From Octopus sinensis (taxonomy: Eukaryota), in NCBI RefSeq assembly GCF_006345805.1, contig NC_043012.1, positions 48,174,001 through 48,238,000 of the forward strand: a stretch of 64,000 bases of DNA, read 5' to 3'. Position numbers and translations under genes: made by a program. Below are positions 4,701 through 61,285 of the stretch, one piece after another. Numbering within the stretch: position 1 is the stretch's first letter; each line of letters begins with the position of its first letter. The notes beneath the pieces are model-generated. The model was given only the letters and a program-made list of their open reading frames with translations, ran no database searches and had not been told where the DNA came from.

Positions 4701-4923
4701 ACAGGGTTCATGTGCTGATCTCTGTGTGATCAGTAAAGTAAAGAGTTAAAATGGCAGATGAAATAAGATGCGCATTTCGAACTCCTTTCCTGATCTAAAC
4801 CAGTCAGTAAGCACTAACGTATCTGGTTTTACGATAGAACATTTCTCGGTCATTATATATCTTCGTCCATTTGAGCAATCACCCAAACTTTGACCTTAAG
4901 CATTTATTTCAATATCTCATTGC

Positions 4924-5052
4924 TGTCTGAGGTTGACTTTGCCTTTCAATCTTCTGAGGTCGATAAGTTAGTACCAGTTCATCATTGGGTCGATGTAATC
5001 GATTTAACCCCTCTCCACGCCACGAAATTGCTAGCCCCAAAATTTCAAACCA
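4924..5052 (+). mobile_element. SINE family B, partial
   Basis: GAGGTTGACTTTGCCTTTCAATCTTCTGAGGTCGATAAGTTAGTACCAG matches the core of the 22889-23301 copies. Confidence 0.7.
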
Positions 5053-7036: not shown

Positions 7037-8140
7037 CAGGGTACAATGGCTAACTTGTCATCTCATATTTTTAATTACGTGTGTGCGCGTTGTTTATTTT
7101 TGATTTTGTTGACTACACAGTACAGTAGGGTTAGATGGGCACCGTTTTCAGAAAGAATTGGATGTGTGTAATGGTAGTTACGAAGGTACAGTAGCTCAGA
7201 AAACTCACTGATCGTTCTAATAAGAAAGGAATTCATGAATTTCTTGCTGGGATCCAGGCCATGATTGACAATGATCCCTCCAAGTAAATCGGGTCTACTG
7301 CCAGGGACATGGGAGTGTCTGAGCTTCTTATCAGACATGTAATACATGAAGATATTCAGCATTCCTCATAGAAGATGAGAAACGGCAAATACTTATCTCA
7401 AGCCGTCAAGGACAAGAGGAAAGACCGCTCGACGAAGCTTTTGAAGAAATCAAGCATCCTCGCCAACCGAACATGCTTTGGATTTTACTCAGACGAGAAA
7501 TTTTTCTGCCACGATCAGATGGTGAACACACAGAACAACTATTGGCTTGCTGTGTCTCCAAAACACGTACCGACTACTCGCTAGCGATGGTGATGTTATG
7601 CCCTCATTCATCTTCCTACACATCGCTCAGACTAAAAACGGCAGCCTACACCAAGTGCCTGGAGGAGGTAGTGCTGTCCTGGGTCAAGAGGGTGGCTGCT
7701 GGAAGACACTATGTCTGGCAACAGGACTCTGCACCATGCCACACATGCAGTTGAACGCGGTCATGGCTGGCTGACAGATTCTACGACCACATCACCTCTA
7801 ACATCCGGCCACTTAGTGCTGCAACCTCCTTCATTATTATGTGTGGGGCTCAGTAGAGCGAGAGACAAAACTCATTGTAACATCAAAGATAAACTGAAGG
7901 CAAGGATTATGGCAGCATTCACCAACTTAAACAAAGAAACAGTCCAGAATAGTTGCAGGAGAGTCCAAAGTAGTCTGGAGGCCGTGGTTAAAGCCAAATG
8001 GCGATTTTATTGAATATATTTACTCTTTAGTATTTCGAGATATTTTTATATAATTTTGGTAAATATATCTGTTAAAATGAGACGTTAATGTTATTTTCAT
8101 TTTGGCGTAATTTAGACGATAATTTACTCACGGCACGCTG
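7037..8140 (+). mobile_element. Decayed Tc1/mariner-superfamily DNA transposon (maT/DD37D-like)
   Basis: TA-flanked degenerate TIRs (cagggtacaatggctaacttgtcatct versus reverse complement cagcgtgccgtgagtaaattatcgtct). Transposase motifs FYSDEKFF, YVWQQDSAPCHT and CNLLHYYVWG are split over frames. Confidence 0.85.
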
Positions 8141-15527: not shown

Positions 15528-16135
15528 AGCCGGCGAACTGGCAGTATCGTTAGCACGCTGGGCAAAATCCTTAGCGGCATTTCGTCTGCCGCTACGTTCT
15601 GCGTTCAAATTCCGCCGAGGTCGACTTTGGCTTTCATCCTTTCGGGGTCGATTAAATAAGTACCAGTTACGCACTGGTGTCGATATAATCGATTTAATCC
15701 GTTTATCTGTCCTTGTTTGTCCTCTCTAGATTTAGCCCCTTGTGGGTAGTAAAGAAATAGAAATGGTATTTCGTCTGCCGCTACGTTCTGCGTTCAAAAT
15801 TCGCCGATTTCGACTTTACATTTCATCCTTTCGGATTGGATTAAATAAGTACGAGTTACGCACTGCGGTCGATGTAATCGATTTAATCCCCTCCCCTAAG
15901 CTGCCCTTGTGCAAAAACATTGAAATCATCATTTTTTTGTTTTTGTTAAGGGAGCGAGCCGGTAGAGTTTTTAGGGCGCTGGACGAAATGCATGAGGTCT
16001 TTCGCCCGTCGAAACGTTCTGATTTCGAATTCCGCCCGATGTCAACTTTGCTTTTCATCCTTTCGACTACTGTGGTTATTGTAATCGACAAACCCCTTCC
16101 CCACAAATTTCATACCTTGTGACTATTGCAGAAAC
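15528..16135 (+). mobile_element. SINE family B cluster (full unit, tandem partial unit and a third diverged copy)
   Basis: Head GGCGAACTGGCAGTATCGTTAGCACGC..GTTCAAATTCCGCC. Core CTTTCATCCTTTCGGGGTCGAT is repeated three times. Confidence 0.85.
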
Positions 16136-22888: not shown

Positions 22889-23301
22889 TGGGCGGGCTGG
22901 CAGAAACGTTAGCACGCTGGAAAAAATGCTTTGTGGTATTTCGCCCGCCGCTGCGTTCTGAGTTCAAATTCCGCCAAGGTTCACTCTGCCTTTCATCCAT
23001 TCGGGATCGTTAAATTAAGTACCAGTTACGCACTGGGGTCGATGTAATCGACTTAATCCCTTTGTCTGTCCTTGTTTGTCCTCTCTGTGTTTAGCCCCTT
23101 GTGACTAGTAAAGATATAGGTATTTCGTCTACCGTTACGTTCTGAGTTCAAATTCCGCCGAGGTCCACTTTGCCTTTCATCCTTTCGGGGTCGATTAAAT
23201 AAGTACCAGTTACACACTGGGGTCGATGTAATCGACTTAATTCCTTTGTCTGTCTTTGTTTTCCCCTCTATGTTTAGCCCCTTGTGGGCAATAAAGAAAT
23301 A
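22889..23301 (+). mobile_element. SINE family B, head plus tandem-duplicated body
   Basis: tRNA-like head and GTTCAAATTCC B-box. The body restarts at GGTATTTCGTC at ~23119. Confidence 0.9.
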
Positions 23302-37594: not shown

Positions 37595-38866
37595 TCAGAC
37601 TGAGTAAAAAGTAAGCAACGTTTTGAAACATCAAATTCATCACGCTATATTTCACTAATGCGGGAGTTTTATTCATGATAGTAAGTACCATTACAATCAA
37701 CGCGTTTTTGCAAACGAGTTTCTAGTTTGTTATTTCTGGTAACATAAAATTCTGGAGTTTTGGTTGTGATGAACGTTTAAACGCACTTTCAGCATCGGTT
37801 TGATTTTTGAACTCCTCCTCTTCTCTCACGGGAAACCATCAAGGTGCTTGAAAAAATGGTAGTCGGTATGAGAAAGGACTGGGGAATAAGCTGGGTGAGG
37901 AAGAAGTTCGTAGCCCTCAACTTCTGGAGCGTCATTAGTGAAATGTGTGGTCGAGTATTGTCATAAAGAATAATTGACTCACTTTTGGTGACTAGTCTGG
38001 GACGGAATAGTAGTAGTTTTTCGTTCATTATGGCAATTTCATGGTAATATCTTTCAGCCGTAATGGTTTTTCCAGGTTTTAATAAGTTATAGTGGATGAG
38101 TCCAGCGGTGCCCCACTAATAAGTCACCACAAACTTGTCTTTGAAGAGCTCGGGTTTAGGGAAGATTTTCAGTGCTTCATTTTGGTGAAACAACAACGAA
38201 GAACGATTTTGTTATTGTACAGAATCCACTTTAAATCGGTGGTTACAAGTTACAATGCGGTCGAGAAACGGATCGGTCTGCTTACGGAGAAGAAGCGACG
38301 AGCAAATTTGATACCTGCACATTTTCTGATTTTCATTCAAATCCTGTGGTACCCATTTGCCGAGCATTTTTAATTTTCCGATCGCATGCAAATGGCTGAA
38401 GATAGTTTTCTGGCTAACTTGAAGTTCTTTTGCCAGTTCTCGACTGGTTTTACGTGGATCTTTCTACAATTGACCGTCATCGATGACAGGCGTCCACTAC
38501 GCTCGCGATTTTCAAGGCTTAGGTCTTCACTGTGAAATCGTCTAGAACATTTTCGAACTGACCACTCACTGGTCATTTCCTCACGAAATCTTTCGTTGAT
38601 ATCGTGAGAAGTTTCAGTTGCTTTACATCCTTTTTTCAAGTTTCACAGCAAAATTACTCGAATATAGCGCTATGGCAATTCCATTTCAAATGATTATAAC
38701 AACGGGGAAAAAAAATCAACGTTAACTTATTGATGCATTTGGGCAAAGCTATATCTATATTATCAGAGAATTGCAATAGAATGTATAAAAAAAACTGAAG
38801 ACTCTGCAAAAATCCGGTACAAATTCTTCATGGGTCAAAACGTTGCTTACTTTTTACTCAACTTGA
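37595..38866 (-). mobile_element. Full-length but decayed mariner transposon (1272 bp)
   Basis: TA-flanked ~32-bp TIRs (tcagactgagtaaaaagtaagcaacgttttga / tcaaaacgttgcttactttttactcaacttga). Minus-strand fragments KKGCKATETSHDINERF..SLENRERSGR, PFLDRIVTC and ILYDNTRPHISLMTLQKL. Confidence 0.92.
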
Positions 38867-47267: not shown

Positions 47268-47689
47268 ACATAAATGTGTGTGATTATATGTGTGAGTACG
47301 TGCGTCTGTTTGCATGTGTCTTCCCATACCTAGAGATTAACAGACTGTGTGGGTATATTTGCCAACCTATATATTAAATGTTCAGCAAATGGCAAGCGGA
47401 AGGTAAGGCCTAAAATTAAGTGCCTAGTTCTATTTGGTCATGGCTTTATCTCAGAATAGACACAGGCCTAAAATCGTAAAACTGAAGCAAAAACATATAA
47501 AATATAAACACATATACGAGTACATACATACATACAAATATGTGTGTGGGGGTGCGCACGTGTGTGTATGCATGCATATATGTATGTATGTATGTATGCA
47601 TTATGTATGCATGTATGCATGTATGTATATACATGTATATATATATATAATATATATATATATATATAAAATATGTGGTTATATATATA

Positions 47690-47742
<53 letters not shown>

Positions 47743-47900
47743 AAAGGGCTTAGTAAAATAAATTACTTTGCCGCATACTGAACTCGTTAGAAATAGCAGC
47801 TAAAAAAACTATTTCTAACACTTAAGAAAACCTCTCTCATATAGTGCTTGCTCAATTCAACCCAAGAAAGTATGAGGGTAGAGACATTAAAAATCAAATG

Positions 47901-47975
47901 CAAAGGTTATTTGAGTACGTACGTTTCAAGATTAGCCAAATTCGACCCTTCTCTCATCAGCTCAGAATGCCCTTG
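47901..47975 (-). ncRNA. Type I hammerhead ribozyme, copy 1
   Basis: Reverse complement of the 48660-48734 motif with an intact core. Predicted cleavage between 47916 and 47915. Confidence 0.8.
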
Positions 47976-48450
47976 TTTGAGTTTGAAAACACTGAAAATG
48001 GGAGCATACCCTTTCGGCTTGTTATCGCTTCTGAAGATCTGCTCCCAACTAACAGTGCTAGCTAACTCAAATATGCAAGAGAAAAATTTCTGTTCTCCCC
48101 TTTCCACCAGCGTGGGTTAAAATCAGCAAACACTATCTTTTTTTCGGTAAAATCCAAGACAAATAAGTAGAGAGAGATGAATTATAATTTCAACAATTGA
48201 GGGTAAAATTAATTAATTAATTAATCAATTTCACAAGTATTCAGTATGCAAAGGGACCATTTAAGGCAAATTCAAATTATTACATTATATAAAAGGGCTT
48301 AGTAAAATAAATTACTTTGCCGCATACTGAACTCGTTAGAAATAGCAGCTAAAAAAACTATTTCTAACACTTAAAGAAAACCTCTCTCATATAGTGCTTG
48401 CTCAATTCAACCCAAGAAAGTATGAGGGTAGAGACATTAAAAATCAAATG

Positions 48451-48523
48451 CAAAGGTTATTTGAGTACGTACGTTTCAAGATTAGCCAATTCGACCCTTC
48501 TCTCATCAGCTCAGATGCCCTTG
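48451..48523 (-). ncRNA. Type I hammerhead ribozyme, copy 2
   Basis: Same motif with two 1-nt deletions outside the core. Predicted cleavage between 48466 and 48465. Confidence 0.8.
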
Positions 48524-48659
48524 TTTGAGTTTGAAAACACTGAAAATGGGAGCATACCCTTTCGGCTTGTTATCGCTTCTGAAGATCTGTTCCCAACTAA
48601 CAGTGCTAGCTAACAAGCCGAAAGGGTATGCTCCCATTTTCAGTGTTTTCAAACTCAAA

Positions 48660-48734
48660 CAAGGGCATTCTGAGCTGATGAGAGAAGGGTCGAATTTGGC
48701 TAATCTTGAAACGTACGTACTCAAATAACCTTTG
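48660..48734 (+). ncRNA. Type I hammerhead ribozyme, copy 3
   Basis: UGAG-CUGAUGA-GAGA[18 nt]UCUU-GAAAC[GUAC]GUA^CUCA. Stem I is extended by AUU/AAU and CAAGGG/CCUUUG. Predicted cleavage after 48719. Confidence 0.85.
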
Positions 48735-49206
48735 CATTTGATTTTTTAATGTCTCTACCCTCATACTTTCTTGGGTTGAATTGAGCAAGCACTATATGAG
48801 AGAGGTTTTCTTTAAGTGTTAGAAATAGTTTTTTTAGCTGCTATTTCTAACGAGTTCAGTATGCGGCAAAGTAATTTATTTTACTAAGCCCTTTTATATA
48901 ATGTAATAATTTGAATTTGCCTTAATGGTCCCTTTGCATACTGAATACTTGGTGAAATTGATTAATTATTAATTAATTTTACCCTCAATTGTTGAAATTA
49001 TAATTCATCTCTCTCTACTTATTTGTCTTGGATTTTACCGAAAAAAGATAGTGTTTGCTGATTTTAACCACGCTGGTGGAAAAGGGGAGAACAGAAATTT
49101 TTCTCTTGCATATTTGAGTTAGCTAGCACTGTTATTGGGAACAGATCTTCAGAAGCGATAACAGCCGAAAGGGTATGCTCCCATTTTCAGTGTTTTCAAA
49201 CTCAAA

Positions 49207-49280
49207 CAAGGGCATTCTGAGCTGATGAGAGAGGGTCGAATTTGGCTAATCTTGAAACGTACGTACTCAAATAACCTTTG
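49207..49280 (+). ncRNA. Type I hammerhead ribozyme, copy 4
   Basis: CTGATGA at 49222-49228 and GAAAC at 49254-49258. Predicted GUA cleavage after 49265. Confidence 0.85.
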
Positions 49281-49546
49281 CATTTGATTTTTTAATGTCT
49301 CTACCCTCATACTCTCTTGGGTTGAATTGAGCAAGCACTATATGAGAGAGGTTTTCTTTAAGTGTTAGAAATAGTTTTTTTAGCTGCTATTTCTAACGAG
49401 TTCAGTATGCGGCAAAGTAATTTATTTTACTAAGCCCTTTTATATAATGTAATAATTTGAATTTGCCTTAAATGGTCCCTTTGCATACTGAATACTTGGT
49501 GAAATTGATTAATTAATTAATTAATTTTACCCTCAATTGTTGAAAT

Positions 49547-49585
<39 letters not shown>

Positions 49586-49615
49586 TATATATATATATAT
49601 ATATATTATATGTAT

Positions 49616-49665
<50 letters not shown>

Positions 49666-49689
49666 TAATATATATGTATGTATATATAT

Positions 49690-49880
49690 TTCGCCATGCT
49701 GGACCGCTGAAATCTATAAGTTTTTTTACACACCACACACACTCTCTCCCTCTCTCTTTCTTTTTTTCTATTCCTCTCTGTTATAATATACGCTTTCATT
49801 TTTCCCGAGCGTCAACTAATACACTGGCTTGTTGTTCGTACACCTGTCTTCGTAGTTTGTTTTTCTATAAAGTTCAACTA
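49690..49880 (+). mobile_element. PLE 3' non-coding fragment related to 63350-63510
   Basis: TCGCCATGCT.GACCGC.GAAATC..AAGTTTTT and CTTGTTGTTC.TACAC.TGTCTTCG are shared. Confidence 0.6.
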
Positions 49881-49901: not shown

Positions 49902-50756
49902 ATAGTAACGAAGCTAAAGCACGTAGAGTGATGTCGCTTGGCACAGATTCACCTAGACCTCTGCTATACATGAGCACTATGTTTTAACGTTCTAGCTTAC
50001 TTTTGCTATCTACAGCAGGGCTTGGAATGAAGGTCTGTAGCGTTTGATCGTCGCATTGATCATGACAGATAAAGGTGAGCAGAGAATATGCATTAAATTT
50101 TGCCAAAAGCTTGGCGATATCTGCTCAGACACTTACGCAAAGTTTTAAAAAATTTTCATCGTTCTCGATACTATTAAGTAGATTTTTAAGCAACTGAGAC
50201 CCCAGTGTCTTCTTGGTCACCTAAAAGCAATTTTGGCATAAACTTGGCAGACACGCGTATCATACCCAAAGCTTCAGTAATAATGGACTAAAGATATGGG
50301 TATGAACCATATGAACCATAATGAACCATAAATAATCTGCACATCCTCTGATAACTCACGGTTGATGATTCGACGATTTCCCCTCACAGCTACACGAGCA
50401 TCTGCGATATTTTTCTCAGTTATGCTGGTTGCGGGTATCTCAAAAGGTTCGTCAATATCGACATATTTTTGGCCTTCTTGAAAACGTCTGAACTACTTAT
50501 ACACTTGTGTTTGTCTTATACACTCCTCTCCATACTCTTTCTGCAACATTACGTAGGCCTCTGACCAGGTATGACGATGACAACTTCCTCTGGCATGGTC
50601 AAGCGACGATAACATGCTACACACGTTCCTTCCAAGTACTGCTGTAAACAGCGGAAGTGAACTAGAACATTAAAACATACAATCTATGCACAGCAGCGTT
50701 TCAGGTCAATTTGTGTCTAGCGGCTGTACTCTGCGTGCTTCAGCTTCATTACTATG
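49902..50756. mobile_element. Mariner derivative made of two convergent 5' ends
   Basis: ~49902-50070 is a diverged reverse complement of ~50585-50756. Plus strand gives MTDKGEQRICIKFCQKLGD. Minus strand gives EAYVMLQKEYGEECIRQTQVYK*FRRFQEGQ..LGMIRVSAKFMPKLL. Confidence 0.75.
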
Positions 50757-50892: not shown

Positions 50893-51130
50893 TTTGCGGT
50901 GTTTCGTCTACTGTTACGTTCTGAGTTCAAAATCTGCTGAGGTCGACTTTGCCTTTCATCCTTTCGGGGTCGATAAATTAAGTACTAGTTATGCACTGAT
51001 GTCGATATAATCGACTTAATCCTTTTGTCTGTCCTTGTTAGTCCTCTCTGTATTTAGCCCCTTGTGGGTAGTAAAGAAATAGGTATTTCGTCTATCTTTA
51101 CGGTCTGAGTTCAAACCCCGCCAAGGTCAC
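50893..51130 (+). mobile_element. SINE family B with partial tandem restart
   Basis: Core GAGGTCGACTTTGCCTTTCATCCTTTCGGGGTCGATAAATTAAGTAC. Restarts at GGTATTTCGTC at ~51082. Confidence 0.85.
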
Positions 51131-61134: not shown

Positions 61135-61285
61135 TTTATGTTTTCAGTTCAAATGTCACCGGAGTGAACTTTACTTTCATCCTTTCGGATTCGATAAAAT
61201 AAGTACCTGTTGAGCACTGGGGTCGATGTGATTGACTTAGTCCCTCTCCTGAAATTGCTGGAATTGTGCAAAAATTTGAAAGCGA
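61135..61285 (+). mobile_element. SINE family B, partial
   Basis: CTTTCATCCTTTCGGATTCGATAAAATAAGTACCTGTTGAGCACTGGGGTCGATGT. Confidence 0.8.

Follow-up and report, generated by a model that had tools for sequence, protein, structure and literature searches.

The 64-kb stretch of DNA analysed here (the window) contains an insertion built from tandem copies of a ~550-nt unit, which carries type I hammerhead motifs and lacks an open reading frame (ORF), arranged as two head-to-head arms within (TA)n. The explanation that we favour, and hold to be reasonably probable, is that this is a young insertion of a many-copy hammerhead non-LTR retrozyme that was copied into (TA)n by the reverse transcriptase (RT) and endonuclease of a Penelope-like element (PLE). 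This explanation draws on observations of the anatomy of the insertion, the four hammerhead cores, the lack of an ORF and the occurrence of the family in other sequencing runs. By analogy with described systems, the unit is likely a non-LTR retrozyme and was probably inserted by Penelope-type retrotransposon enzymes. Every component has already been described on its own; the interest lies in the joining of a retrozyme unit and a PLE scar in one young copy.

Anatomy of the insertion and its hammerhead motifs

Self-BLAST and alignment resolved the insertion into two arms that share a TAAC at 48611-48614 (Table 1). The arms form an inverted repeat of 838 nt per side (47735-48572 and 48611-49448) with a 38-nt spacer (48573-48610) that is part of the left arm, and the right arm extends 101 nt past the symmetric part. 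The first-pass annotation had described this tandem plus fold-back anatomy with coordinates that proved exact to the base, and its figure of ~1.6 units per strand agrees with the 1.6 (left) and 1.7 (right) units measured. The unit is ~550 nt long, the exact value being blurred by single-base indels, and each arm contains one full cleavage-to-cleavage monomer and spans two predicted cleavage sites unbroken. Both element ends are bordered by (TA)n, as previously noted; the flanks past the TA runs are unrelated and are not reverse complements of each other, and a target-site duplication is not discernible inside (TA)n. No further copy of the unit was found in the window.

Table 1 Features of the insertion and its borders, in order of position
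Feature	Position	Strand	Detail
Left (TA)n-rich microsatellite, presumed target	47620..47734	.	
Left arm, 1.6 units, 5′-truncated at centre	47735..48614	-	880 nt; 3′ end in (TA)n, unit position equivalent 48902
Type I hammerhead 4	47901..47975	-	Core (C3) at 47960, predicted cleavage after 47916
Type I hammerhead 3	48451..48523	-	Core (C3) at 48509, predicted cleavage after 48466
Fold-back junction	48569..48614	.	GTTA/TAAC complementarity around 38-nt spacer
Right arm, 1.7 units, 5′-truncated at centre	48611..49549	+	939 nt; 3′ end in (TA)n, unit position equivalent 49001
Type I hammerhead 1	48660..48734	+	CUGAUGA 48675-48681 (C3 at 48675), GAAA 48708-48711, predicted cleavage after 48719
Predicted cleavage-to-cleavage monomer	48720..49265	+	546 nt, 34% GC
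Long-hairpin cluster, 3′ half of unit	48818..48983	+	Predicted fold and family variants
Type I hammerhead 2	49207..49280	+	Core (C3) at 49222, predicted cleavage after 49265
101-nt one-sided extension, inferred to be comparable to a PLE 'tail'	49449..49549	+	Alignment; PMC8557442, PMC3846280
Right (TA)n-rich microsatellite, presumed target	49550..49690	.	

Comparison of one arm with the other showed 2 substitutions and 14 single-base indels in 845 aligned columns, and the low number of substitutions bears out the earlier proposal of a recent insertion. The indels fall mostly in runs. In the public sequencing run X1 the state of the minus arm is found in the majority of the depth at 49067 (57%), 49162 (90%) and 49231 (77%), and in 42% and 6% at 49080 and 48923, respectively; some of the indels are probably consensus errors, since the X1 majority sides with the minus arm at the first three positions. 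An imperfect long-read consensus of this kind would also fit an assembly artefact, in which a chimeric fold-back long read merged two loci through the repeat, and such a merger would explain the unequal ends too. No strand-change joint was found among the joints listed for runs X1, X2, X10 and X12, leaving the central junction without read support in the four runs. However, these runs consist of contigs, probably from other individuals or species, in which the junction of a single locus is not expected, the flanks differ and hence do not form a whole-read palindrome, and the same geometry is common in real PLE insertions. We consider an artefact very improbable.

A descriptor of the type I hammerhead gave exactly four matches on the two strands of the window, all within the arms, and reproduced the four previously reported cores with predicted cleavage nucleotides (GUA) 546 nt apart on the plus strand and 550 nt apart on the minus strand. 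The descriptor matched 1 of 20,000 dinucleotide shuffles of the unit and none of 30 shuffled windows, counts that are to be read in light of its having been written after the motif had been seen. Helices I and II both begin with 4 bp and, past an internal loop, continue for 6 bp and 5 bp, respectively (helix II having ~9 bp in total), whereas helix III has just 2 bp, capped by GUAC, and lies within the palindrome ACGUACGU. The computed duplex between two copies of this palindrome has a free energy of -9.8 kcal/mol, compared with +2.4 kcal/mol for the monomer hairpin, in keeping with the dimer-type helix III that had been postulated; as modelled, helix III is of the dimer-type design described for metazoan hammerheads (PMC4209133). 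The pair 10.1-11.1 is G.U instead of the canonical G-C, and hammerhead 3 has two single-base deletions relative to the other copies. The isolated hammerheads fold no better than shuffles (z of 0.01, 0.75, -0.05 and 0.46). A search with the Rfam covariance models, which had been proposed as a check of the motif, returned no hammerhead family at the gathering score or at E<=10. Rfam miRNA matches at the centre of the element were rejected as merely reflecting the palindrome.

Stop-free frames within the arms reach at most 91 aa. No Pfam match to RT or GIY-YIG was found among the 251 stop-to-stop frames of >=55 aa in the window that passed a low-complexity filter; the element thus lacks the RT and GIY-YIG ORF of an autonomous PLE. 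A protein search with a 69-aa sense frame against longer proteins gave nothing at E<=1, which is weak evidence, and no tRNA genes were found. The description of the unit as non-coding and retrozyme-like is upheld by these results, and the counter-proposal of a simple truncated PLE end was set aside because only ~550 nt, without an ORF, lie between the tandem copies. The GC content of the unit (34%) is under the 45-50% ceiling of non-LTR retrozymes, and each arm has two type I cores in tandem, where retrozymes have at least two. The predicted monomer is highly self-paired, as are those of retrozymes: its folding z is -5.18, with none of 100 shuffles folding as well, and 60% of it is paired when it is modelled as a circle.

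Several other repeats are present in the window. The minus strand at 37792-38642 carries the remains of a mariner/Tc1 transposase, broken up over three frames (Pfam HTH_48, E 1.5e-5; Transposase_1, E 1.3e-7; HTH_Tnp_Tc3_2 below the cut-off), and its pieces are the sole above-cut-off Pfam matches among the 251 frames. Right beside the insertion, 153-nt imperfect inverted repeats (75% identity), 548 nt apart, surround a stop-ridden frame at 49902-50755 that we take to resemble a mariner N-terminus, and this is probably a deleted mariner. Two short ORFs at 7473-8013 (plus strand), which have no Pfam match, resemble the C-terminal part of a Tc1-like transposase. Copies of a SINE-like dispersed repeat, 80-88% identical, are located at 4923-5007, 15580-15738, 15769-15889, 22954-23097, 23123-23280, 50901-51060 and 61168-61243, and one pair of them makes a 184-nt tandem at 22935-23286. 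This dispersed repeat, the Tc1/mariner relics and the abundance of microsatellites are reminiscent of an octopus genome.

The unit family in public sequencing runs

Seventeen of the 24 listed runs contain 0.29-0.64 of the sampled unit words (8 studies, 6 organism labels). None of the 24 is recorded as RNA, X10 and X12 being RNA by guess only, and runs X18-X20 (small share) and X21-X24 (zero) were left out of use. Contigs of four runs (X1, X2, X10 and X12) were aligned onto one permuted unit (48800-49346), giving 7,546, 788, 55 and 8 aligned contigs, respectively, which cover 29 of 29 bins in X1, X2 and X10 and 23 of 29 in X12. Many copies are indicated by the thousands of variant contigs in X1 and the 788 in the 40.5-Mb X2, depth not being the same as copy number. 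The unit is a diverse, many-copy family across several organism labels. A single contig of X12 (48951-49047) reads across the joint between two units at 49001, and among the loose ends listed at least one contig each of X10 and X12 continues into (TA)n after place 49002, which is the same end as the right end in the window. A TA-rich loose end at 48892, close to the left-end site, is seen in at least one contig of X10.

Other irregular contigs were also recorded. Foreign sequence continues just beyond the 3′ end of the unit at loose ends of X2 and X12 (49002-49016), a lead to sister subfamilies or to an autonomous element. At least one X10 contig skips 49024-49284 (261 nt, hammerhead included), at least one skips 48851-48956 (106 nt) and at least one goes back 514 nt; these possibly represent shorter or differently built subfamilies. 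Joints that go back 546 nt were rejected as evidence of tandems or circles, as they fall at the chosen cut point inside the unit. Searches of metagenome, genome and viral contigs with two exact unit patterns gave 0, 0 and 0 matches for the first and 1, 0 and 0 for the second, the single match (L001) being rejected as a relative as it is 34 nt only, is without CUGAUGA and looks like chance. A distant blastn search of a phage collection gave no match. No prior description of the family was found in the open retrozyme, hammerhead, Penelope and octopus-repeat literature, a scope outside which Repbase, Dfam and subscription journals lie, and repeat libraries may well already include the family, classed under Penelope or as unknown.

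Depth along the unit is uneven. In X1 it is 0.36-2.5 million from 49237 round to 49027, leaving out the two edge bins of the aligned stretch (0.19-0.21 million), and 0.02-0.21 million over 49028-49236; overall it is ~10-fold greater from 49240 to the unit end than over 49010-49236. This contrast implies that most relatives have only the hammerhead-to-end part and differ upstream, and they could include autonomous pseudo-LTRs (pLTRs). The nucleotide at the cleavage site (49265 equivalent) is U, not A, in 79%, 85% and 93% of the depth in X1, X2 and X10, respectively, and position 10.1 (49229 equivalent) is U in 27%, 59% and 84%. Due to this GUU majority and the U at 10.1, many family members may cut poorly, and judging from these motifs the dominant GUU subfamily may carry a weaker ribozyme than the copy in the window. 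The GUA form accounts for ~0.26 million at 49265 in X1, in line with the lower depth figure, and looks like a minor subfamily beside the GUU majority.

These family data bear on a second explanation, in which the element is a non-autonomous PLE that has lost its interior. The hammerhead would travel as a passenger in the pseudo-LTR, and linear transcripts of tandem copies would serve as templates, with no need for cleavage or a circle. Its sole difference from the retrozyme explanation is whether the ribozyme is used. Depth in the runs is far greater over the ~310 nt from helix II to the 3′ end than over the other ~230 nt, as would be the case for a common pLTR with a subfamily-specific body; GUU is the majority form, the arms cross two cleavage sites unbroken, the short helix I and long helix II resemble those of PLE hammerheads (PMC4209133), and Poseidon of Anolis inserts in vitro without its hammerhead (PMC11167929). 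On the other hand, nothing has been lost from the core, helix III has kept its palindrome and helix I its extension, the fold of the whole monomer is far better than that of its shuffles, variants that keep pairs occur also in the less shared part of the unit (49125, 49201 and 49214), and no coding relic was found by frame, Pfam or protein search. We regard a deleted PLE as unlikely, although a serious candidate.

The distribution of family variants over the predicted fold was compared with random placement. The invariance of the hammerhead core was not taken as evidence, with ~1 variant expected in its 13 positions. Of 43 variants, 40 comprise 24 at unpaired positions, 11 that keep a pair and 5 that break one; the 5 pair-breaking variants among the 40 listed compare with 11.6 expected (P 0.005), and 3 among the 25 frequent variants with 7.4 expected (P 0.02), P values that are optimistic due to the variants being unphased and partly clustered. 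The pair C48864-G48936 varies on both sides to U-A, and G48854.U48946 varies to G-C. This pattern is suggestive of selection on the modelled RNA fold.

Formation and transcription of the locus

In the proposed mechanism, tandem copies would be transcribed and the two hammerheads of a dimer would pair through the palindromic helix III and excise a monomer. A host ligase may then circularise this monomer, and within the resulting structured circle a single ribozyme would be weak. The PLE enzyme would nick (TA)n and prime reverse transcription at one of two AT-rich sites that lie ~100 nt apart in the unit, and synthesis would proceed beyond one unit, which either a circle or an uncleaved multimer would allow. 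The new strand would then fold its 3′ end (TAAC) back on a GTTA 42 nt upstream and copy itself into a head-to-head palindrome, the resolution of which would leave a 101-nt tail on one side. The TAAC at 48611-48614 is complementary to GTTA at 48569-48572, the nearest of the 7 GTTA sites in the left arm; this complementarity and the location of the spacer in the left arm point to a form left by a strand end folding back and copying itself, and the near-equal arms and short loop fit the same expectation. Of the textbook marks of a PLE-type insertion, the head-to-head inversion and the (TA)n surroundings are present, and the tail on one side has a longer counterpart in the 101-nt extension. A linear uncleaved multimer fits equally well as a circular template, as the passage of the arms across two cleavage sites could result from a religated circle or from uncleaved RNA. 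A pure self-copy cannot yield a second arm longer than the first, and under fold-back the 101-nt asymmetry thus requires trimming or a template switch to be assumed. Against the retrozyme explanation as a whole stand the lack of an Rfam hammerhead match, the G.U at 10.1-11.1 and the length of the tail (101 nt as opposed to 30-40 nt).

The asymmetry would be explained without trimming if the same element and enzyme had acted by twin priming from both target strands, the two cDNAs being joined via the 4-nt TAAC microhomology. Twin priming is known for the 5′ inversions of L1 (bioRxiv 2024.12.14.628481), each end of the insertion has an AT-rich site of its own that shares microhomology with (TA)n, and among the loose ends listed the right end is seen again in X10 and X12 and the TA-rich end at 48892 occurs in X10. 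Two independent cDNAs would, however, have had to terminate at lengths of 880 and 939 nt and at unit positions no more than 42 nt apart, and the GTTA used is the nearest of the seven. Twin priming is improbable in our assessment, yet deserves to be weighed. Far less credible is an origin at the DNA level, by tandem duplication of a resident copy and its inversion by fold-back break repair without retrotransposition: short-loop microhomology fold-back is a general outcome of repair and the arms are almost identical, but the inversion ends at the element ends, the flanks are unduplicated, and both arms begin inside the unit and terminate in (TA)n.

It had been suggested that transcription from either direction would excise a monomer. 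Folding does not agree with this suggestion, as a transcript entering from the flank makes the antisense arm first and the symmetric 1,714-nt transcript is predicted to be 98% paired (-1445 kcal/mol), covering and so burying both sense hammerheads. The companion prediction of ~840 bp of double-stranded RNA (dsRNA) is matched by a modelled duplex of ~838 bp. Read-through from the flank would, by this folding, produce long dsRNA and no monomers, and monomers could be released solely from transcripts that start near the centre. Given the ~838-bp hairpin expected from read-through, this copy would more probably supply silencing dsRNA than monomers. A wider proposal, which we put forward only tentatively and consider doubtful, is that an active, very-high-copy family of ribozyme circles, each ~550 nt long and apparently belonging to a cephalopod-like genome, multiplies by rolling-circle reverse transcription that PLE enzymes carry out, and that its insertions routinely form fold-back palindromes that act as its own dsRNA silencer. 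If this were true, no earlier retrozyme family would have revealed both its mobilising machinery and its template through insertion scars.

Comparison with known retrozymes and PLEs

The question in the field is which enzyme mobilises animal retrozymes and whether the circle is the template. PLEs are strong candidate movers according to PMC7229834, and to the PLE-retrozyme case a 2026 preprint (bioRxiv 10.64898/2026.07.22.740005), as far as its accessible text goes, adds only co-occurrence and pLTR homology, retrozyme consensus sequences matching PLE pLTRs in Xenopus. A young ORF-free hammerhead concatemer with a PLE scar provides anatomical support for mobilisation by PLEs, and a many-copy family would permit statistics on ends, arm lengths and spacers that bear on circle versus linear multimer and on fold-back versus twin priming. 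Two findings from such systems weigh against the retrozyme explanation: 8 of 9 predicted Xenopus retrozyme dimers showed no cleavage in vitro (same preprint), and Anolis Poseidon, also in vitro, can insert without its hammerhead and takes mainly uncleaved RNA as template (PMC11167929). In cephalopods, Octopus vulgaris is reported to have 6.8% Penelope-like DNA and 31 recently active families (PMC13282606, whose supplement does not mention hammerhead, ribozyme or retrozyme), and 235 Rfam hammerhead_1 matches are reported in the giant squid (PMC6962438).

Metazoan non-LTR retrozymes (PMC7229834; 2026 preprint) are, like the unit described here, tandem, non-coding, low in GC and present in many copies, with a structured monomer and a type I hammerhead per unit that has a weak palindromic helix III; traits that fit this unit are also given in the review PMC7761336, and one axolotl family likewise has a weak base of helix II. 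The unit of 546-550 nt is longer than the 150-450 nt of PMC7229834 and within the 51-972 nt of the preprint. In contrast to these retrozymes, each arm has only 1.6-1.7 units and the arms are inverted head-to-head, and cleavage and circles are predicted here; the word 'inverted' has no occurrence in the main text of PMC7229834 and, in the searched text of the preprint, appears in one reference title only.

PLE hammerheads as described in PMC4209133 share the short helix I, long helix II, palindromic 15.2-16.2 and dimer-type design. They differ from the present motif, which has a 2-bp helix III with a tetraloop and is without the extra base between 9 and 10.1 and the G10.1-C11.1 pair, both conserved according to that paper. 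In Schistosoma, pairs of hammerheads on opposite strands are found 100-700 bp apart, and circular templates were proposed for copies of more than a unit (PMC4209133). Non-autonomous PLEs of the Chlamys type, e.g. MRC1 of Chlamydomonas, are likewise ORF-free, multicopy, head-to-tail and moved by PLEs, but belong to green algae, and most Chlamys elements are without canonical hammerheads (PMC8557442).

In its geometry the locus resembles insertions of EN+ PLEs (Penelope/Poseidon, Neptune and Hydra), which combine a partial tandem with an adjacent inverted, 5′-truncated copy, head-to-head, with a tail at one end, a (TA)n target and a hammerhead in the repeated end. In contrast to these, the present insertion has no RT/GIY-YIG ORF, both of its arms exceed one unit, and its one-sided extension is 101 nt as opposed to a tail of 30-40 nt. 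Head-to-head inverted pLTRs with an optional tail are the common form of Penelope and have been interpreted as self-priming (PMC3846280), and a curation guide gives this picture as well (PMC8969392). The same inverted geometry with (TA)n targets is described, and ORF-free multicopy derivatives are noted, in PMC8557442. The geometry is less surprising than the first-pass annotation had rated it, being the usual form of PLE insertions (PMC8557442, PMC3846280).
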